64,000 nucleotides of DNA from an uncultured Gemmataceae bacterium. Its GTDB lineage: Bacteria > Planctomycetota > Planctomycetia > Gemmatales > Gemmataceae. Location: contig CAVVPN010000003.1 of NCBI GenBank assembly GCA_963750165.1, positions 320,001 through 384,000 of the forward strand, written 5' to 3'. The notes beneath the pieces were generated by a model. The model ran no database searches, was not told the DNA's origin, and saw only the letters and a program-made list of their open reading frames with translations. Of the stretch, positions 8,654 to 58,503 are shown in pieces. Position 1 is the stretch's first letter. Each line of letters begins with the position of its first letter. The translations under genes were made by a program, and so were the position numbers.

Positions 8654-8869
8654 GCTCTGCTGTTCTGCCGCTTGCGGCGTAGCGGGGAAGCGCTACGCCG
8701 CAAGCGGTAGAAACAGGAAGTTGCGCGATGCCATTTCAGCCGATGACATGTTGAAGCACCTCGGCGGCGCCCTCCTCACCACCGGTCCTCTTCTGCCGGC
8801 TCGATCGGTGGCACCTTGCCAGGTACTTGACGAAAGGTCTCGAGTTCCAGCGCCGGCTACGCAGGACAG

Positions 8870-10205
8870 TCATTTCCCAATACAGAATCGGCTGAAAATG
8901 CGGTCCAGCAAATCCTCCGTGTAGACAGCGCCGACCAGCGCCCCCAGTTGGTCGAGCGCCCGCGCAGCTCCAGCGCCAGGATTTCGGGCGGATCCTCGTG
9001 CAGCGCCACGCCGTGCGCCAGCCGCAGATGGTTCAGGCACGCCTCGACGTGATGACGGCAGCGGCTCAGACTCGGCGCCAGCGCCGGCTGCCGTCGCGCC
9101 CGCGCCCGCTCCGCCAGCAGCCGCCGCAGTGCGTCCAGCCCCGTGCCGCTGTGGGCGCTGGTCGCCAGCAGACCGGGCGGCGCCGCGGCCAGGTCGCACT
9201 TGGTCGCGATCATCACGACCGGCGGCCGACCCGCCTCCACCAGCCGTCGCTGCTCCGCGTCCAGTGCCGGCGCGGCAGCCTCGACGCACAGTAGCAGCAG
9301 GTCCGCCTGCGCCGCCTCGGCGCGGCCGAGCGCCTGGGCCCGGCCCTCGACCGCATTGACAGCGGTGCGCCAGCCGGCCGTGTCGAGCAGGTCCAACGCG
9401 ACACCGCCGAGGTCGAGGCGGCGCTGCAGATAGTCGCGCGTCGTGCCCGGCTGTGGGCTGACCAGCGCCGCGGCGGCCCCGGCCAGGGCGTTGAACAGGC
9501 TGCTCTTGCCGACGTTCGGCCGCCCCGCCAGCACCACGCGGAACGGTCGCTCGGAGACAGCCCGCTCCTGCAACTGTTTCCGCAACAGCGTCACCAGCGC
9601 CAGCCCCTTGCTCAGCCGCAGCAGCAAAGCGTCCTGGGCGATGAAGTGAATGTCCTCGTCGGCGAAGTCCAGGCCCGCCTCCACGTCGGCCAGCAGGTTG
9701 AGCAGATCCTCGCGGCAGTCCTGCAGCGGCCGCGTCACGCCGCCGGCCAGCTGGGCCAGCGCCTGCTTCAACTCGTCGCGGCTGCCGGCCTCGATGACGC
9801 CGAGCACCGCCTCCGCGCGCGGCAGGTCCAGCTTGCCGGCCAGGAACGCACGCAGCGTGAACTCGCCTGGCTGCGCCGCCCGCGCCCGGCGTTCAGACAC
9901 TCCGCGATCAGCACTTCGAGCAAGGGTGGACAGGAGATGGTGTGCAGCTCGACTAGCGGTTGGCCGGTGTAGGTGCGCGGCGCCGGCCAGATGTAAAGGT
10001 CGGCGGGCAGCGGCGCGGTCACGTCGGGCAGCCGAACCGCCCCGGGGTGGAGGCGGCGCTGTTGTGGGTCCACGTCGTCCGCCGTGTGGAAGACGCGCAG
10101 CGCGACGGTCAACGCCGCCGGCCCCGTCAGCCGCACGATGGCGCGGCCGCCGGGGCCGGGGGCGGTGGCGAGGGCAACAATGGTGTCCTGCGGATCGGGC
10201 AGCAT
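8870..10205 (-). CDS. mnmE: tRNA modification GTPase MnmE, two apparent frameshifts (~9890, ~8960)
   Basis: DTIVALAT, PGEFTLRAFLAGKLDL, GRPNVGKSSLFN, GTTRD, DTAG, C-terminal IFSRFCIGK spread over three ORFs. Confidence 0.95.
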
Positions 10206-15436: not shown

Positions 15437-15538
15437 TATTGCAGATTGCGAATGGGTGTAGCGGAAGTCGCCAGACTTCCGAGCAGCACCGGACGGAAGT
15501 CTGGCGACTTCCGCTACACCCAACTGCGAACCGCACTA
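15437..15538. mobile_element. Inverted copy of the 102-bp MITE-like element
   Basis: Reverse complement differs from 6379-6480 at 6 positions by manual comparison. Confidence 0.85.
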
Positions 15539-15749: not shown

Positions 15750-15977
15750 TCAGCTGCGCTCCGACACAAACGCCTTGATCCGCTCCTCAAGCGGCCCCGC
15801 CGCCGCGCGCTCCGGGGCGAAGGCGTGCGACAGCGATTCGTCCAACCGCCGCACCACCTCCAACTCCTCGCGGCAGGCGGTGCAGGTGGCGAGGTGCCGA
15901 TTCAACGCCTCGTCCTCGAACAGCAGTTCGCAGTCCACCCGGGCGGAAATCAATTGCAGGACGCGGTCGCAGTTCAT
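15750..15977 (-). CDS. Standalone zinc-binding anti-sigma domain (zf-HC2/ZAS), 75 aa
   Basis: MNC..HLATCTAC (C-x24-H-x3-C-x2-C); ungapped paralog of the N-terminus of 16060-17352. Confidence 0.85.
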   Translation of the reverse strand: MNCDRVLQLISARVDCELLFEDEALNRHLATCTACREELEVVRRLDESLSHAFAPERAAAGPLEERIKAFVSERS

Positions 15978-16017
15978 GGCCGGATGCCCTCGCAGTGCGG
16001 CACAACTCACACTTTTT

Positions 16018-16045
16018 TAGTCGAACGAGCCCGGCAAAAGGTTCC
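16018..16045 (-). promoter_or_regulatory. ECF-sigma-type promoter GGAACC-N16-CGACTA
   Basis: Minus strand GGAACCttttgccgggctcgttCGACTA, 40 nt upstream of the ATG at 15977. Confidence 0.6.
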
Positions 16046-16059
16046 CGCCGCGGCGCCGC

Positions 16060-17352
16060 TCAGGCCGACGCAACCTCGCCCGCGCCGGGGGCCGCCTCGG
16101 CGGGCGGCGGCGCCACCGGCTCGACCTCGACGCAGTTGCGGCCGCTGGCCTTGGCCCGCCGCAGCGCCGTCTCCGCCGCCTTCTTGACCTGCTCGTAGTC
16201 CGCCGGCCGATCCGCCTCCACCACCGCCAGGCCGACGCTGACCGTCACCGGGATTTCCTGGCCGTCGTAGACGAACTTGTGCGCCGCCACCTGCGCCCGC
16301 AGCCGTTCGGCCAGCGCCAGGCCGCCGGCGCGGTGCGTCTGCGGCGCGATCAGCAGGAACTCCTCGCCCCCCATGCGGCCCAGCACGTCGATCTTGCGCA
16401 ACTCCGCCGTCAGCACCCGGGCCAGTTCGCGCAGCACGTAGTCGCCGCCGGAGTGCAAATAGAGCGTGTTGACCTGCTTGAAGAAGTCCAGGTCGATGAC
16501 GCCCACCGTCAGCGCCGACGGGAAGCGCCGCCGCAGGTGCAACTCGCGCTCGACGAGGTGGTCCAGGGCCCGCCGGTTGGGCAACTGCGTCAGCGTGTCG
16601 GTCAGGGCGAACTTCTCCAGCGTCTGCGTCTTCTGCTCCAGTTCGCGGTTGGCCTCCTCCAGGGCGCGCGTCCGCTGCCGCACGCGCTCCTCCAGCTGGA
16701 CGTTCAGCTCGCTCAGTTGGGCCAGCACGCGGCCGTAGTCGCGCTCCAGCTGCAGCTGGCGGCTGGCGTCTCGCAGGGCGTTCAGCAGCGATGCGTTGTT
16801 GCCGAACGGCTTGAGCAGGTAGCGGAAGACGTGGCCGCGGTTGATGGCCTCGACCGCCTCTTCCAGGTCGCCCAGGCCGGTCATCATCAGCCGTTTGGTC
16901 TGGGGGTGGTGCGCCACGGCCCACTCCAGCAGGGTGACGCCGTTCATGCCCGGCATGCGCTGGTCGGTGAGCAGGATGTCGAAGTCGCGGCGCGCGAACC
17001 ACTCCTGGGCCTCGCGGCCGCCGCGGGCGGTCTCGACCTCGAACTCCTCGGACAGGAAGGTGCGCAGGAACAGCAGCGTTGCGGGCTGGTCGTCCACCGC
17101 CAGGACGGTGCAGCGGCGCACCGGCCGGCCGTGCGCCTGCAGGGACGCCTTGACCCGGTCCACCAGCACCTCGGCGGCCTCGCGCTCCGGCTCGTAGGCC
17201 CGCATCAGGAACTCGTCGAGCCGGCGCAGGCCGTCCAGCTCGTGGCGGCAGCCGGCGCAGCCCTCCAGGTGTTCGCCCAGCACCTTGTCCTCGAACAGGA
17301 TTTCACTGTCGATCCGGGCGGAGATCAGTTCCAGGGCTCGGTCGCAGTTCAT
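16060..17352 (-). CDS. zf-HC2 anti-sigma - receiver - coiled coil - GGDEF diguanylate cyclase fusion
   Basis: HLEGCAGC; AVDD..LTDQRMP..MTG..KPF; TDTLTQLPNRR, DLDFFKQVN, RKID I-site, GGEEF. Confidence 0.93.
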   Translation of the reverse strand: MNCDRALELISARIDSEILFEDKVLGEHLEGCAGCRHELDGLRRLDEFLMRAYEPEREAAEVLVDRVKASLQAHGRPVRRCTVLAVDDQPATLLFLRTFLSEEFEVETARGGREAQEWFARRDFDILLTDQRMPGMNGVTLLEWAVAHHPQTKRLMMTGLGDLEEAVEAINRGHVFRYLLKPFGNNASLLNALRDASRQLQLERDYGRVLAQLSELNVQLEERVRQRTRALEEANRELEQKTQTLEKFALTDTLTQLPNRRALDHLVERELHLRRRFPSALTVGVIDLDFFKQVNTLYLHSGGDYVLRELARVLTAELRKIDVLGRMGGEEFLLIAPQTHRAGGLALAERLRAQVAAHKFVYDGQEIPVTVSVGLAVVEADRPADYEQVKKAAETALRRAKASGRNCVEVEPVAPPPAEAAPGAGEVASA

Positions 17353-17431
17353 CGCTCGTCTCTCCCGTAGATGTGCGTGGAAAGTCGCAGATCGTGGCTG
17401 GGCTCGTGGGCGTTCCGTGGTCCCCGAAGTC

Positions 17432-17992
17432 TCACGGCTTCGGCTCCTTGGGCCCGGCCGTGTCCTCCGGCTCCAGGCAGGCGCGCAGCAGCTTGCGGGC
17501 GCGCGTCAGGCGCTGGTTGATGGTGGCGAACGTCACCCCGAGCCGCTCGGCCAGTTCGTCGTAGGTGGTCCGGCCCCCGGAGTAGTAAATCTCCACGACC
17601 TCGCGCAGCTCCACCGGCAGGCGGCGGACGCACTCCTTCAGGTCGTGGGAGCGCTCGCGCCGGGCGTCCGTGTCCGCGTCCGTGTCCGAGATCAGGTCCG
17701 GGGCATCGGCGTCGAGCGACAGATGCCGTCGGGCGGGGTCGCCGAGCCACTCCCGGCACAGGTTGCGGGCGACGGCGTACAGCCAGGAACCGAAGGAGGC
17801 CGGCTCGCGCAGGCTGGTGAGCTTGTCCAGGCCGCGGAGGAAGGTTTCCTGGGTCAGGTCCTCGACCACCTCGGGCCGGCGCACATGGGCCCGGCACAGC
17901 GCGGCGACCTGGCCCGTGTAGCGCTCCACCAGCCGGCCGTAAGCGCCGAGGTTGCCTTGCAACACCTGGCGCACCAGTTCCGCGTCGTCCAT
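17432..17992 (-). CDS. ECF RNA polymerase sigma factor
   Basis: DAELV, VEDLTQETFL, SFGSWLYAVARN, LPVELREVV, region 4 HTH; alternative in-frame start at 18103. Confidence 0.93.
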   Translation of the reverse strand: MDDAELVRQVLQGNLGAYGRLVERYTGQVAALCRAHVRRPEVVEDLTQETFLRGLDKLTSLREPASFGSWLYAVARNLCREWLGDPARRHLSLDADAPDLISDTDADTDARRERSHDLKECVRRLPVELREVVEIYYSGGRTTYDELAERLGVTFATINQRLTRARKLLRACLEPEDTAGPKEPKP

Positions 17993-18250
17993 TAACAGCA
18001 CCTCCGAGCAAGGGCGGGCTTGACAGGGCGGCCGGCTTTTTTTGCAACCGGCCCGGGCCGGGCGGCTGCCGCGGTGCGGGCACAGCAGTTCCTCGTCGTG
18101 CATCGCTTCGCCTCCCGGTTGGGTCGGGACTTCTCGCTGTCCTCCCCCTTCCAGAAGGCCATCGGCCCGAAGTTATTACTGTAACATGCCGATTTTTTCT
18201 GCAAGAGTAGAATAAGTGCCGTTACCCGCTTACTCTGGAGGCCCCTCGCG

Positions 18251-18627
18251 ATGGCACACCAACACTCCCCGCAGTTCCTGAAGCTGGTCGAAGATGCCAA
18301 ATCGCGCGTCCGGGAGACGACAGTTGATGAGGTGAAGGCCCGGCTGGACCGTGGCGAGCGGTTCCATTTGGTGGACGTGCGCGAGGACGGTGAGTGGGCG
18401 AAGGACCATTTGCCGGTGCTGTCCACCTGGGCCGCGGCGTCATTGAGCGCGACATCGAGCAGACGATCCCCGACAGGGCGGCGCCGATCGTGCTGTACTG
18501 CGGTGGCGGCTTCCGCTCGGCGCTGGCGGCGGACAACTTGCAGAAGATGGGTTATACCAACGTGCTGTCGATGGACGGCGGGCACCGCGGCTGGCGCGAG
18601 AAGGGCTACCCGTTGACGACGGGCTGA
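18251..18627 (+). CDS. Single-domain rhodanese/sulfurtransferase, apparent frameshift ~18412
   Basis: LVDVREDGEW..HLP[G]AVHLGRGVIERDIE..YCGGGFRSALAA..SMDGG. Confidence 0.9.
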
Positions 18628-19878: not shown

Positions 19879-21618
19879 ATGATTGCTCCCCCACAGCCCG
19901 CGCCAGTTGCAGTCCCCGTCCCGGCCTCGGATGCCATCACGGTTTACTGTCCTGCGCCGGCCGCAATCCGGTCGCCCCTCTGCTGGCCGCTGGCATTGGC
20001 CGGCCAGTTCGTGCTCGTCTTCGCCGTCGTCACCCTGTCCGCCCCCGGCCGCATTGACATCGTCGATGGCCAGACGCGCTACGAGGTGGCCCGCAGTCTG
20101 GTCGATCACGGCGATTCGAAGATCCGCGACGAGAAGACCTGGTTCGCCGTCTACAACGGCCGCGATGGCGACCTGTACACCGACTACCGCTTCCCGCAGT
20201 CCAGCCTCGGCGTGCTGCTCATCTGGGCCGCCGACGCCACCGGCCCCGTCTGCGAACTGCGCCGCCAGTTCTTCTACGCGCTGATGAGTCCCCTGGCGTG
20301 TGCGCTGCTGGCGCTGGCTTATTCCGTCTGGTTCCGGGCGCTGGGCTACCGCCCCCGGGTCAGCCTGTTCTGGGCGACCGCCGGCATCTTCTGCACGCCG
20401 AACTGGTTCTACGGCACCAGCACCTTCGACGACATTCTCGGCACCGCGACGGTGGTGCTGGCGGTGGTGGTGATGTGGCTGGGCAGCGCCCGGCGACCAC
20501 TGCTGGCGGCGGTGGTGACGGGGCTGCTGTTCGGCTGGGCGTACAACTGCAAGCCGCCGCTGGTGTTCTTCGCGCTGCCGGCACTCGTGGCCGGCTGGCG
20601 CGGCGCCTGGCCGGGCCGGCGGCAGTTCGCCCAGGCGGCCGTGGTGGCCGGCGGCGTCCTGCTCGGCATGGTCGCCATGAAGCTGTACCACGCCCACAAG
20701 TTCCCCGACTACGTCCTCGACCCGATGGAGGAGTACGAGAGTCTGTACGGGCCGTATTTCACATCAAACCCGCTGCCGGGCCTGGTCAGCCTGATCTTCA
20801 GCCCGTCGGCCGGGGCACTGTGGTATTGCCCGACGCTGCTGCTGGTGGTCCACGGGCTGGTGGCGTGGCGCGGCCGATACCGGGCGTTCACGGTAGCGGC
20901 GCTGGCGGCGTGCCTGGCGTTCTTCGGGTTCGTGTCGTGCCTGTCCTTCTTCAAGGGCGAGCCCTGCTGGGGGCCGCGCTACCTGACACCGCTGTTCGCG
21001 CTGCTGTGGGTCTGGGCGCCGGCGGCCCTGGAGCGCGTCGGCCGCGGTCTGGTAGTGAGCGTGCTCGGCCTGGGACTGCTGATGCAACTGCTCGGCCTGA
21101 GCATGGACCCGCACCGGCTGTTCCTCGAAGTGCCGCTGCACTGGAACTACTATGTACGCTATCCCTGGCTGAGCTTCGCCCCGACGACCTCGCATCTGCT
21201 GTATCGGCCCGGTGAGATTGTGGACGTGCTGACTTCTGGCCGCCGGTCGCCGGAGTTCGGCCCCGGGCCGCTGGCGACGCACGTCGGCGGCTTCGAGACC
21301 GAGCGGCGTGTGGTGCCGATGAGCCTGGCGACTCTGCTCGGCACCCTGGCCATGCCAGTGGGGCCGGCGCCGGTGGTGGCGGTGTCGTCAATGAGGATGT
21401 CCACCGTGCCGCAGAACATGGAAGCGATGCAGGCGGCGTGCGGCCGGTATCACATTTTTAACGCATTCCGGCCGTGGTGGGCGTCACAGGGCTACCTGGC
21501 CCCGGCGGATCGGCCGGTGGACCTGGAACGCACGCTCGTGCTGCTGCTCGCGCTGATCGGCGGCGGGTTGGGGTTGATGCTGATCGGCGGCCGACTGCCG
21601 CGGGGCGAACGGGCATGA
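19879..21618 (+). CDS. Polytopic GT-C-fold (ArnT/PMT-like) glycosyltransferase, paralog 1
   Basis: First-loop IDIVDGQTRYEVARS, WFYGTSTFDD, SP..G.LWYCP, WGPRYLTP; many TM segments. Confidence 0.7.
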   Translation: MIAPPQPAPVAVPVPASDAITVYCPAPAAIRSPLCWPLALAGQFVLVFAVVTLSAPGRIDIVDGQTRYEVARSLVDHGDSKIRDEKTWFAVYNGRDGDLYTDYRFPQSSLGVLLIWAADATGPVCELRRQFFYALMSPLACALLALAYSVWFRALGYRPRVSLFWATAGIFCTPNWFYGTSTFDDILGTATVVLAVVVMWLGSARRPLLAAVVTGLLFGWAYNCKPPLVFFALPALVAGWRGAWPGRRQFAQAAVVAGGVLLGMVAMKLYHAHKFPDYVLDPMEEYESLYGPYFTSNPLPGLVSLIFSPSAGALWYCPTLLLVVHGLVAWRGRYRAFTVAALAACLAFFGFVSCLSFFKGEPCWGPRYLTPLFALLWVWAPAALERVGRGLVVSVLGLGLLMQLLGLSMDPHRLFLEVPLHWNYYVRYPWLSFAPTTSHLLYRPGEIVDVLTSGRRSPEFGPGPLATHVGGFETERRVVPMSLATLLGTLAMPVGPAPVVAVSSMRMSTVPQNMEAMQAACGRYHIFNAFRPWWASQGYLAPADRPVDLERTLVLLLALIGGGLGLMLIGGRLPRGERA

Positions 21619-23381
21619 ACACGTGCGCGTGGCCCTGGGTACTGGTCTGTGCGGGCCAGTTCGTGGCGGTGTTCGCGCTGGCGGCGCTGTCCGGGCCGGG
21701 TCGCATTGACATTGTGGATGGCCAGACACGCTACGAGGTGGCGCGCAGTGTTGTCGAACACGGCGACGTGAAAATCCGCGACGAGCGGGTCTGGTTCCTG
21801 GTATTCCCCGGCCGCGACGGCGCGCGCTACACCAAATATCGGCTGCCGCAGAGCGTGCTGGGCGTGGCCGCGATCACACTGGCGGACGCGACCGGCCCCG
21901 CGACGGAACCGCGGCGACGCTTCTGCTTTGTGCTGACCAGCGCGTTCGCGTGCGCCCTGGTGTCGGTGGCGTTCGCGCTGTGGTTTCGCCGCACCGTGGG
22001 GCAGACATTCCTGTCTGCCAGTCCCGCGGCAGACAGGAATGTCTGCCCCACGAGCCGAAGCGCCGTCGCCTGGGCGCTGCTGGGCATCGTGGCGACGCCG
22101 TGCTGGTTCTACGGCACCAGCACCTTCGACGACATCCTCGGCACGGCGGGCCTGGTCTGGGCGGTCGTGCTGGCGTACCTCAGCCGCGAACACCGGCCGC
22201 TGCTCGGCGCCGCCGCGGCGGGGCTGCTGCTCGGCTGGACGTTTCACTGCAAGGAACCGCTGGGCGTTTTCGTGCTGGCCGTGCTGGCCGCCAACCTCGA
22301 CTGGCGACGGCCGCTGCGGGCTCAATGGCCGCGAGTCGCCCTGATCGTCGGCGGACTGGCGCTGGGCGTTGCCACCTACCAGGCTTACGAAGCCTACAAA
22401 TTTCCCCCCGAAGCGACGGCGAACCACGCGGAACTGCTGCGGCGCTACGTGCCCTACTGGACCGCCAATCCGCTGCCGGCGCTGGCGGCGTTCACGCTGA
22501 GCCCGGGCGCCGGCGTCCTGTGGTACTGCCCGCCGCTGCTGCTGTGCCTGGTCGGCCTCTACCGCTGGTGCGCCGCCGAACCGTGGTTGTGCCGGGCGGT
22601 CGTGGTCGGTTGCGTCGTCTTCATCGGCTTCCTGTCGTTCCTGACGTTCTTCAACGGCGACCCGGCGTGGGGGCCGCGCTACCTGACGCCGCTGTTCGCG
22701 CTGCTGTGGTTGTTCGCGCCGGCCGGCGCCGCGGTGCTGCGGCCGCTGCCGGTGCGGGCGCTGCTGGTGCTCGGCGTCGTCGTGCAGCTGCTCGGCCTGA
22801 GCGTGGACCCGCACCGTCTGTTCCTGGCTCGCAACCTGCCGTCGGCGTTCTACCACAACCTGCCCGGTGGGCCGTGGCTGTACTTCGATGCGAACGTCTC
22901 GCAGCTGGTCAACCGGCCACGGCTGATCGGCGAAATCCTGCAGTCCAATGGCGAACAGGAGGTCGCGTTCACGCCGGGGCCGGAGCCGACCTTCGCGTTC
23001 CCGGTTCTGGATTTCGTCGATCGCGCCGACTCGGTGCTGCTGACCAGTACCGTCGGCCTGGCGGCGGGTCTGCCGCTGACGAGCCCGGCCGTGTTTCTGA
23101 CGCGCGACCTGCACGAACGCCGGCGCACGGACGCGGTTCACCGTTACCACGTTCTGAACTCGTTCCGCCCGTGGTGGGCGAACCAGTGGTATCTGCCGCC
23201 GGCGGCCCGGCCAGTGGACCTCGCGGCGACGGCGGCACTGCTGGCGGCACTGCTGCTGGGCGGTCTCGGCGCGGTGACCCTGGGGCTGCGGGTGGCCAGG
23301 AACCGTTTGCCTCCCCCGGAGCCGCGACCTATGTTTGAACAACCTGGAAAAGCTGGGACGGAAGAGGCGTTATCCCCTTAA
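21615..23381 (+). CDS. Polytopic GT-C-fold glycosyltransferase, paralog 2 (carries in-frame REP)
   Basis: Same motifs as paralog 1; ATGA overlap. Confidence 0.7.
   Translation: MNTCAWPWVLVCAGQFVAVFALAALSGPGRIDIVDGQTRYEVARSVVEHGDVKIRDERVWFLVFPGRDGARYTKYRLPQSVLGVAAITLADATGPATEPRRRFCFVLTSAFACALVSVAFALWFRRTVGQTFLSASPAADRNVCPTSRSAVAWALLGIVATPCWFYGTSTFDDILGTAGLVWAVVLAYLSREHRPLLGAAAAGLLLGWTFHCKEPLGVFVLAVLAANLDWRRPLRAQWPRVALIVGGLALGVATYQAYEAYKFPPEATANHAELLRRYVPYWTANPLPALAAFTLSPGAGVLWYCPPLLLCLVGLYRWCAAEPWLCRAVVVGCVVFIGFLSFLTFFNGDPAWGPRYLTPLFALLWLFAPAGAAVLRPLPVRALLVLGVVVQLLGLSVDPHRLFLARNLPSAFYHNLPGGPWLYFDANVSQLVNRPRLIGEILQSNGEQEVAFTPGPEPTFAFPVLDFVDRADSVLLTSTVGLAAGLPLTSPAVFLTRDLHERRRTDAVHRYHVLNSFRPWWANQWYLPPAARPVDLAATAALLAALLLGGLGAVTLGLRVARNRLPPPEPRPMFEQPGKAGTEEALSP
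21996..22051. repeat. Intragenic REP doublet with perfect 24-bp arms
   Basis: GTGGGGCAGACATTCCTGTCTGCC-agtcccgc-GGCAGACAGGAATGTCTGCCCCAC. Confidence 0.92.
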
Positions 23382-32647: not shown

Positions 32648-35406
<2,759 letters not shown>

Positions 35407-57689: not shown

Positions 57690-58270
57690 TCACCAGGGGG
57701 CGCTGCCGGTGAGCGACTCCACGTAATCCCGTAACACCTCGTCGAACGAACGCGCCAACCCGTCACACGCTTTGCGCCACACTCGAACGCCTGCCAGGGT
57801 CAGGTGCGGCCGTCCTGCTTGCACCATCGCCGCGGTGAAATCCTGATGGGCAATCGCGTTCCGCCATTCATTCAGTTCTTCCAGGGCCAACCGTCGGCCG
57901 GGGTTTTTGGCATCACGAACGTCAACCATCGACCAGAATACCAGACCGAACCGGGTGAAATCGATGCCGAGGTTGCCGGGGTTGGGGTTGCCACGGTCAA
58001 TCCGCCGCCCGAACAGGAGGTTCTCGCGCAACATTTCTCGAAGGTCTGGGTCGGCCACTGGCGCCACAAAATATTCGGCGCACTCCGAGTGCAAATCGCG
58101 GCAAAAACCTTGAAACTGTGCGGACAGCAGCATGGCATAGGCCTGGTTGATCTGCTGCGTTGCCGCCCGCGCCCCGGACCGGACCCGCGCACCGAGCGGT
58201 GTGCGTTCTCGACATCGGCCAGAGTCGCTGCCCGCTCGGCAAACCATTTTCGCAGGGAAGACGATGGCAT
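57690..58270 (-). CDS. HEPN-domain protein (putative RNase), apparent frameshift ~58170-58190
   Basis: LLSAQFQGFCRDL, GNPNPGNL, LNEWRNAIAH (R-x4-H); N-terminus MPSSSL in ORF ending 58270. Confidence 0.75.
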
Positions 58271-58503
58271 CCGTGCTCCTCATTCGTCGCCGCCGATGTC
58301 TATACCTCCAGTGATTATTTCCGCGCCCAGCGGACGGTCAAGCACAATTCCTTGTCTGCGGGGGAACGTCAGGGGGATCGGAAGTCGCGACGGTGATTTC
58401 AGAAATCGCCATCGTGGCTCCCGATTCCCTTGCCACTCCGGAGCATGTATCCAAAATCACTACAGCCCACCGTTGACCACTTTATAGACGCGGAGGGCGT
58501 ATC

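Follow-up and report, generated by a model that had tools for sequence, protein, structure and literature searches.

A zinc anti-sigma domain fused to a receiver and a GGDEF domain beside an ECF sigma factor in Gemmataceae: a candidate link between sigma release and cyclic di-GMP synthesis

Anti-sigma domains of the zinc-binding type are joined in one soluble protein to a response-regulator receiver (REC) and a probable diguanylate cyclase in a family of Gemmataceae proteins. The parts are known ones; their combination is real, conserved and recurrent. It was encountered in a stretch of 64,000 nucleotides (the window) from an uncultured Gemmataceae bacterium (assembly GCA_963750165.1, contig CAVVPN010000003.1, positions 320,001 to 384,000). 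Here three intact genes on the minus strand encode an extracytoplasmic function (ECF) sigma factor, then a 430-aa fusion of a zinc anti-sigma (ZAS) domain with REC, coiled-coil and GGDEF parts, and then a 75-aa protein consisting of a ZAS alone, which we call the mini anti-sigma. In the model that we favor, phosphorylation would both activate the synthesis of cyclic di-GMP (c-di-GMP) and free the sigma factor held by the ZAS, with the mini ZAS serving as a brake; to this model as a whole we give about an even chance. The features of the locus are as follows.

17432..17992, minus strand: ECF sigma factor, 186 aa (Pfam and NCBIfam matches, homologue starts, tree)
16060..17352, minus strand: ZAS-receiver-coiled-coil-GGDEF fusion, 430 aa
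17128..17352, minus strand: class I anti-sigma domain (ASD), the ZAS, residues 1-75 of the fusion (zf-HC2, RsiW match, C/H/C/C, predicted sigma interface)
16756..17115, minus strand: receiver, about residues 80-199, with D87/D88/D130/T158/K181 (Pfam)
16606..16797, minus strand: long coiled-coil stalk, helix 186-249 (AlphaFold2 model; likeness to WspR, DgcR and SiaD)
16060..16608, minus strand: GGDEF domain (GGEEF, RxxD I-site) with the C-terminal tail to the stop codon (Pfam, E 4e-37)
15750..15977, minus strand: stand-alone ZAS copy (mini anti-sigma), 75 aa (zf-HC2; 41/71 identical to the fusion ZAS)
18148..18178, minus strand: promoter-like element before the sigma gene, with the group motif; -35-like box at 18171-18178 near consensus, -10-like box at 18148-18157 weak, spacer 13
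16017..16046, minus strand: candidate sigma-dependent promoter of the mini gene; -10 box at 16017-16026 near consensus, -35 box at 16039-16046 half-matching, spacer 12

An initial annotation made from the letters alone had described an ECF sigma gene, a soluble ZAS/REC/coiled-coil/GGDEF protein and a 75-aa copy of its ZAS, and Pfam matches, structure model and residue checks all agree with it. The genes in its range are real, while its start of the sigma gene at 18103 did not hold. The longest open reading frame (ORF) does begin there; homologues start at the methionine at 17992, 6 nt after a ribosome-binding site GGAGGT, and the sigma factor is therefore a protein of 186 aa (17992-17432). It is matched by Sigma70_r2 and r4_2 of Pfam and is the sole member of its ECF group found in the genome of the window (G000), in which the hidden Markov model of the group gave it 168 bits, compared to 97 for the next ECF factor.

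The fusion protein and its family

Pfam placed Response_reg at residues 83-192 and GGDEF at 249-406 of the fusion, and zf-HC2 at residues 3-36 scored 19.4 bits, just under the cut-off of 22.2 that the mini protein exceeds with 23.1 bits. In the AlphaFold2 model the ZAS is made of four helices, and the stalk (186-249) is one continuous helix. The best solved match of the ZAS is RsiW (5WUQ, E 4.6e-7); with its C and Hx3Cx2C motif in a four-helix domain, encoded at +1 of an ECF sigma gene, it has the sequence features of a class I ZAS. The functional residues are all present, namely the zinc ligands C3/H28/C32/C35, the receiver residues D87/D88/D130/T158/K181, the I-site R319xxD322 and the GGEEF motif. 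No transmembrane segment was detected, the highest hydropathy over 19 residues being 1.18 (values above 1.6 occur in 3 of 43 family members), and so the reading of a soluble protein with intact zinc, receiver and I-site residues was borne out. Judged by its phospho-acceptor pocket, stalk, active site and I-site, the C-terminal part resembles the cyclases of the WspR/DgcR type and is probably active.

A search with residues 1-200 of the fusion gave 171 matches, the best 120 of which were examined; the top 44 have both ZAS and receiver, and 43 full-length ones were aligned, P0037 being left out for its frameshifted C-terminus. These 43 ZAS-REC-GGDEF proteins are 46-85% identical to the window fusion. 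They keep the zinc ligands C/H/C/C in 42 cases, the remaining protein being without its N-terminus, the receiver pocket DDDTK in 42 (DNDTK in one), the RD of the I-site in all, and six catalytic or substrate residues (D287/K292/N295/D304/K401/R405) in 40. The active-site motif is GGEEF in 20 members, AGDEF in 19, GGDEF in 2, and SGDEF and SGEEF in one each, and the family has NT..LH in place of the canonical ND..GH. The combination of zf-HC2, Response_reg and GGDEF that the initial annotation had singled out is thus a conserved family with its functional residues kept. ZAS, REC and GGDEF occurred together in 48 of the 274 collected proteins and ZAS-REC fragments in 13 more. An assembly artifact is ruled out by the same in-frame junction in dozens of independent assemblies.

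Among 252 Gemmataceae genomes, at least five (G000, G033, G108, G206 and G212) contain separate sigma and fusion genes and at least three (G104, G105 and G043), belonging to one genus and having the same upstream gene, contain single-chain fusions of the two; these counts are lower bounds, with 15-22 candidates scored per genome. No ZAS-REC-GGDEF fusion was found in 312 genomes from other families of the class, and a scan of metagenome loci gave at least one fused locus, among the 80 listed. Longer N-terminal matches in G222, G224 and G225 (one genus) and in G255 and G154 were set aside as having no ZAS. In the ESM Atlas a ZAS-REC-GGDEF cluster was not found. The Atlas does hold a cluster of 198-aa receiver/zf-HC2 proteins (72 members, zf-HC2 on 54%, commonest in Acidobacteriota), possibly phosphorylation-controlled anti-sigma factors without a cyclase, so that the coupling of ZAS and receiver may extend beyond the fusion family of Gemmataceae. 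The sigma gene lies directly upstream of the fusion at all six assessable separate-gene loci (at L030 the sigma C-terminus was read from the DNA), in agreement with the adjacency expected from the initial annotation, and no other neighbor is common to these loci.

The nearest relatives of the ZAS are anti-sigma factors of the same ECF group, and 8 of 10 that were scanned had FecR plus VIT or HEAT parts. FecR-type anti-sigma factors are membrane proteins according to an ECF survey (PMC7826278). The fusion has therefore swapped the FecR-type part for a cytoplasmic REC-GGDEF enzyme. Stand-alone REC-GGDEF proteins of the same kind are common, their profile being matched in 113 of the 252 family genomes, mostly via the receiver, and one in G000 is 53% identical to the corresponding part of the fusion. 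In a tree of the REC-GGDEF parts the ZAS-bearing ones fall into two groups, clade A with 28 proteins including that of the window (support 1.0), and clade B, in which they are intermixed with stand-alone proteins. A single grouping was rejected by the approximately unbiased (AU) test (p = 0.0002), for which a quick LG+G4 tree of 39 hand-picked rows was used with groups named after an earlier tree. Because the ZAS-bearing parts form two separate groups, the linkage arose at least twice, and this suggests selection for physical tethering beyond co-expression.

Fused and stand-alone REC-GGDEF parts can be closer to each other (P0033 and P0045, 93%; P0027 and P0048, 91%) than to those of other fused proteins. 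Identity of up to 93% suggests repeated gain, loss, domain capture or gene conversion in clade B. In P0062 the same REC-GGDEF module is carried on an XRE-type helix-turn-helix instead of a ZAS; such N-termini were also found in P0168, P0179 and P0228, with a GGDEF domain seen for P0062 only.

The predicted sigma interface, the mini gene and the upstream motif

When the sigma factor was modeled with residues 1-200 of the fusion and zinc, the complex scored 0.83, compared to 0.00 for the best control; the mark set for a complex was reached by 116 of 157 solved pairs and by 2 of 215 mismatched pairs. The runs agreed on at least 89% of the contacts, with a partner confidence (pLDDT) of at least 82. 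Confident contacts are limited to residues 7-81 of the fusion, and helix 4 lies on sigma2 in the geometry of the class I ASD interface (PMC7406223). Contacts of helix 4 with sigma2 and of a second surface with sigma4 are both present in the prediction, which may owe them to likeness to solved pairs. The proposal that the ZAS of the fusion holds the neighboring sigma factor is therefore backed in prediction, and its helices 3-4 very probably bind regions 2 and 4 of the sigma factor in the manner of SigW-RsiW.

The mini protein and the fusion ZAS are identical, ungapped, at 41 of 71 residues, exactly as first counted, and at 160 of 225 nucleotides, and the DNA repeat is the mini coding sequence alone (228 nt, 71%). 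Two homologues of 74-75 aa, P0122 (75% identity) and P0123 (74%), form one clade with it (support 99) within clade A, at 74-76% identity and with the four zinc ligands kept. The gene is absent from all three other loci with at least 7.9 kb of downstream sequence, while two loci had too little DNA, and the three-gene synteny foreseen in the initial annotation is consequently not conserved. No ZAS-only short frame was found in the other 251 family genomes at an E of 1e-8 or better. Helix 4 of the mini protein differs from that of the fusion: it has P62, and E/G64 where 40 of 44 fused ZAS have V/A, at the top predicted contact. Compared with the fused ZAS, its ratio of nonsynonymous to synonymous changes (dN/dS) is 0.60, a modest value that is probably inflated by a G+C content at third codon positions (GC3) near 0.9.

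It could be argued that the mini gene plays no part in regulation and is what remains, in decay, of a partial duplication. Its absence from the other assessable loci, the dN/dS, the helix-4 changes and a weak ribosome-binding site would be consistent with this. However, three copies of 74-75 aa survive in one clade with all zinc ligands and the same helix-4 proline, the DNA likeness ends at the gene ends, GC3 amounts to 0.89 and the gene is preceded by a strong -10 match; we regard a relic as quite improbable. Rather, the mini gene was gained in a sub-lineage and then retained, perhaps with a changed affinity. An inverted repeat (window 15437-15538; 45-nt arms, 84% complementary) follows some 210 bp downstream of it and has no Rfam match.

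A two-box motif lies upstream of the sigma genes of this ECF group. It was found at all 20 training loci with leave-one-out scores of 15.9-34.4 bits, compared to at most 12.8 in 10 other ECF loci and at most 15.2 in 21 stand-alone cyclase loci; among three held-out loci of the group, one scored 26.3 and two had no match. Since these same loci supplied the seed, which was picked out by eye, the test is not fully independent; the motif could also represent an operator rather than a promoter. The spacer is 10 in 16 of 17 loci outside clade A and 12 in all three other clade A loci. The element of the window sigma gene reached 15.1 bits in total, with a near-perfect first box. Before the mini gene, where the spacer of 12 is that of this sub-clade, the -10 box scored 14.9; of 19.24 million positions in the genome 35 reach this level, which corresponds to about 1.5e-4 for a stretch of 82 bp, and -10 and -35 boxes combined scored 10.8 (about 1e-3).

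Going by this -10 match, the mini protein is likely a sigma-induced brake acting by negative feedback, which fits better than classical partner switching. The initial annotation had proposed partner switching; in the PhyR/NepR sense this has to be given up, as the mini protein appears to be a second anti-sigma factor and not an anti-anti-sigma factor. In contrast to the ECF15 systems, the receiver is here on the anti-sigma factor, to judge from the domains, and the third gene encodes a ZAS and no sigma mimic. Another candidate, an ECF-like promoter GGAAC-N17-CGA before both ZAS genes, was rejected, for it is not conserved in relatives and its spacer is not enriched in the genome (195 occurrences, compared to 203 and 209 at same-phase spacers). 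A scan for sigma-70 promoters and terminators gave no sites and Rfam no matches.

Direction of the signal

In the favored model, the ZAS of the fusion would hold the neighboring ECF sigma factor until an unlinked kinase phosphorylates D130. WspR and DgcR are activated by phosphorylation-driven dimerization, and the fusion would likewise dimerize through its stalk, with product inhibition at the I-site. The weakest step comes next: the change in the receiver would have to reach ZAS helix 4 through a short linker of near-constant length and so release the sigma factor, and the chance of this seems to us slightly below even. Once free, the sigma factor would drive transcription of the mini gene as well as of its own operon. 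Lacking a receiver, the mini ZAS would capture the sigma factor again whatever the state of phosphorylation. The result, which we think could as well be true as not, would be a transient pulse of sigma activity while the c-di-GMP output persists, and this only in the sub-lineage that bears the mini gene.

Several findings weigh against this model, among them the restricted distribution, altered helix 4 and dN/dS of the mini gene. The complex run used custom alignments and a zinc ligand, which places it outside the calibration, and its score may stem from likeness to solved ECF-ZAS pairs such as SigW-RsiW. There was no confident contact between sigma factor and receiver in the complex model, and since the predicted interface ends at residue 81, it offers no support for allosteric coupling. 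No histidine kinase was present in 31 neighboring ORFs scanned (a subset of those called) at seven other fused loci, and in the window the closest one is some 15 kb distant; a cognate kinase in the locus, usual but not strictly so for regulators of the WspR/DgcR type, is thus missing at the scanned loci. AGDEF replaces the usual motif in 19 of the 43 members and SGDEF or SGEEF in 2, although AGDEF-type cyclases can be active (PMC3974145). The -10 box of the window sigma gene is weak (-0.3 bits), and the motif at its spacer was not enriched across G000, where the top matches were unconvincing and no regulon was seen. The recognition helix of sigma4.2 is 60% conserved among three sigma factors of the window's sub-clade, compared to 87% among 17 FecR-type ones, and together with the lack of genome-wide enrichment this weakens simple autoregulation. 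A fourth clade A sigma factor (L218:9301-9792) has its sigma4.2 helix-turn-helix deleted in frame under an intact upstream motif, which is either real or an assembly error.

Four relatives join all parts into a single sigma-ZAS-REC(-GGDEF) chain, namely P0148 (partial, at a contig end), P0046, P0051 and P0137. In all four the sigma part has degenerated in every region (pairwise identity 35-44%). The zinc ligands are gone from P0046, and P0051 retains no more than the last part of helix 3 with helix 4; at the three loci with DNA the group promoter is lost (scores 2.4-4.4). The model of a single-chain relative was compact (pTM 0.82, without a control), and its sigma part was nearer to the RsiW-bound shape (root-mean-square deviation 5.5 Å to 5WUQ) than to the polymerase-bound one (about 22-27 Å). 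The forms at L212:6863-7786, L217:6038-7933 and L213:5777-7348 and P0137 represent stages of decay in which the zinc motif is intact, has lost its ligands or has its knuckle deleted, and the L212, L217 and L213 loci have in common a prenyltransferase/squalene-cyclase-like upstream gene and a missing group promoter. Further single-chain fusions sought among longer proteins gave two matches, neither of this kind, which is weak evidence. P0124 (1166 aa, sigma-ZAS-TPR) is a single chain in which another ECF factor is joined to its own ZAS.

Such chains raise the question of whether the signal flows in reverse, the sigma factor being mainly a bound regulator of the cyclase: its binding to the ZAS would fix the geometry of the dimer and thereby the amount of c-di-GMP made, and the mini ZAS would adjust the enzyme by drawing the sigma factor away from it. 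All four still tether a sigma-like part although it is degenerate, the promoter is lost in the three with DNA, and the predicted sigma-binding helices are kept where the zinc ligands (in one) or the whole zinc knuckle (in another) are gone. Sigma factors of the window's sub-clade (3-4 sequences) have kept the N-terminal sigma2 region well (73-76% conserved), but not the -35 recognition helix. Precedents are the GGDEF domain of RmdB, which binds sigma-WhiG (PMC13232838), and SiaD, whose structure was solved with its activator SiaC. However, the decay equally fits a sigma factor that is locked by its own anti-sigma and drifting, its frame kept open only as the upstream in-frame part. The promoter motif is kept before all three other sub-clade sigma genes, only 3-4 sigma factors of the sub-clade are at hand, and the absence of a predicted sigma-receiver contact tells against this reading too. 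We consider the reverse flow unlikely.

It is also conceivable that the two halves are independent modules on one tether, the ZAS freeing the sigma factor upon zinc loss, oxidation or proteolysis and the REC-GGDEF part being an ordinary cyclase, linked to the former solely by transcription of the cyclase gene by the sigma factor. The confinement of the predicted interface to the ZAS and the occurrence of the module on an XRE-type helix-turn-helix (P0062) agree with this, as does the likeness of clade B parts to stand-alone proteins, from which it follows that little adaptation was needed. Redox sensing is common among soluble ZAS factors (PMC8999054, PMC7406223). An operon would suffice for co-expression, yet on at least two occasions the parts were fused in frame, with a short linker of near-constant length, and we find this explanation rather improbable. 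A bolder view, which we hold to be doubtful, is that the ECF sigma-anti-sigma pair is an on/off latch of a c-di-GMP enzyme, mutually coupled and built at least twice, with the sigma factor of some lineages acting as a permanently tethered, non-transcribing lid of the cyclase.

Related systems and meaning

Wiegand 2020 is said to have defined 30 planctomycete ECF groups. In the literature searched by title and abstract opening, a scope outside which the planctomycete ECF surveys of Wiegand 2020 and Jogler 2012 fall, we found no description of an anti-sigma factor fused to REC-GGDEF, in line with the statement in the initial annotation that the architecture was not known as characterized; no planctomycete study focused on c-di-GMP was found there either. 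The part of the ECF survey available to us (PMC7826278) has no mention of GGDEF and two of 'diguanylate', both for separate neighboring genes. SigW-RsiW (5WUQ) and the soluble-ZAS groups ECF12 and ECF270 resemble the window in an Hx3Cx2C ZAS at +1 of the ECF gene and in the predicted dual interface, and ECF270s2 also has ECF-ZAS gene fusions. However, the ECF-ZAS group descriptions in that part of the survey have no receiver or GGDEF domain on the anti-sigma factor, whereas the C-terminal part of the window fusion is an enzyme by its sequence. In ECF290s2 a REC-diguanylate cyclase gene is conserved near the ECF gene, but it is separate at +3 and the anti-sigma factor is a membrane protein (PMC7826278).

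The fusion family shares the REC-stalk-GGDEF order with I-site and catalytic residues with WspR, DgcR and PleD, and differs from them in the additional N-terminal anti-sigma domain, a longer stalk, the lack of a linked kinase at the loci scanned and AGDEF in 19 of 43 members. With PhyR-NepR-EcfG (ECF15; PMC7826278) it would share the tie between receiver phosphorylation and ECF release, and the single-chain relatives even carry a degenerate sigma-like domain near the receiver. In PhyR, however, the receiver is on the sigma mimic, that is, the anti-anti-sigma factor, while here it is on the anti-sigma factor itself and is accompanied by a putative enzymatic output. Streptomyces RsiG-WhiG and RmdB are alike in that c-di-GMP is tied to sigma sequestration and a GGDEF enzyme binds a sigma factor (PMC7005675, PMC8325347, PMC13232838); these are separate proteins acting on a sigma-28 factor with c-di-GMP as the input of the anti-sigma, whereas in the window the sigma factor is an ECF and the anti-sigma carries the synthase. 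The planctomycete ECF systems with ZAS-FecR-VIT/HEAT anti-sigma factors have the same sigma group, ZAS type and upstream promoter-like motif as the window; its sub-clade differs in the cytoplasmic REC-GGDEF part that replaces the FecR-type part and in a motif spacer of 12-13 instead of 10.

Elsewhere in the window, probable indel errors of the assembly spread a rhodanese gene (18251-18627), mnmE (8860-10205) and a hybrid histidine kinase gene (32648-35406) across two frames each. Adjacent membrane proteins of 579 and 635 aa that look alike, one with a weak PMT_2 match, are encoded at 19879-23381 inside a cluster of glycosyltransferase and methyltransferase genes. A HEPN module is possibly encoded at 57693-58283, where a 197-aa ORF that matches RiboL-PSP-HEPN weakly (E 2e-4, under the cut-off) is followed by one of 91 aa.

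As a rule, an anti-sigma factor is switched by proteolysis at the membrane, by redox-driven loss of zinc or by an anti-anti-sigma factor that is a separate protein. The series from separate genes through an extra mini ZAS to decaying single chains shows how such switches arise and vanish, and the small soluble parts and predicted promoter motif make the coupling and the sigma factor open to assays in vitro or in Escherichia coli. If the favored model is true, ECF, two-component and c-di-GMP signaling would be joined in one soluble protein, and planctomycetes would directly coordinate a transcriptional program with a lifestyle messenger.

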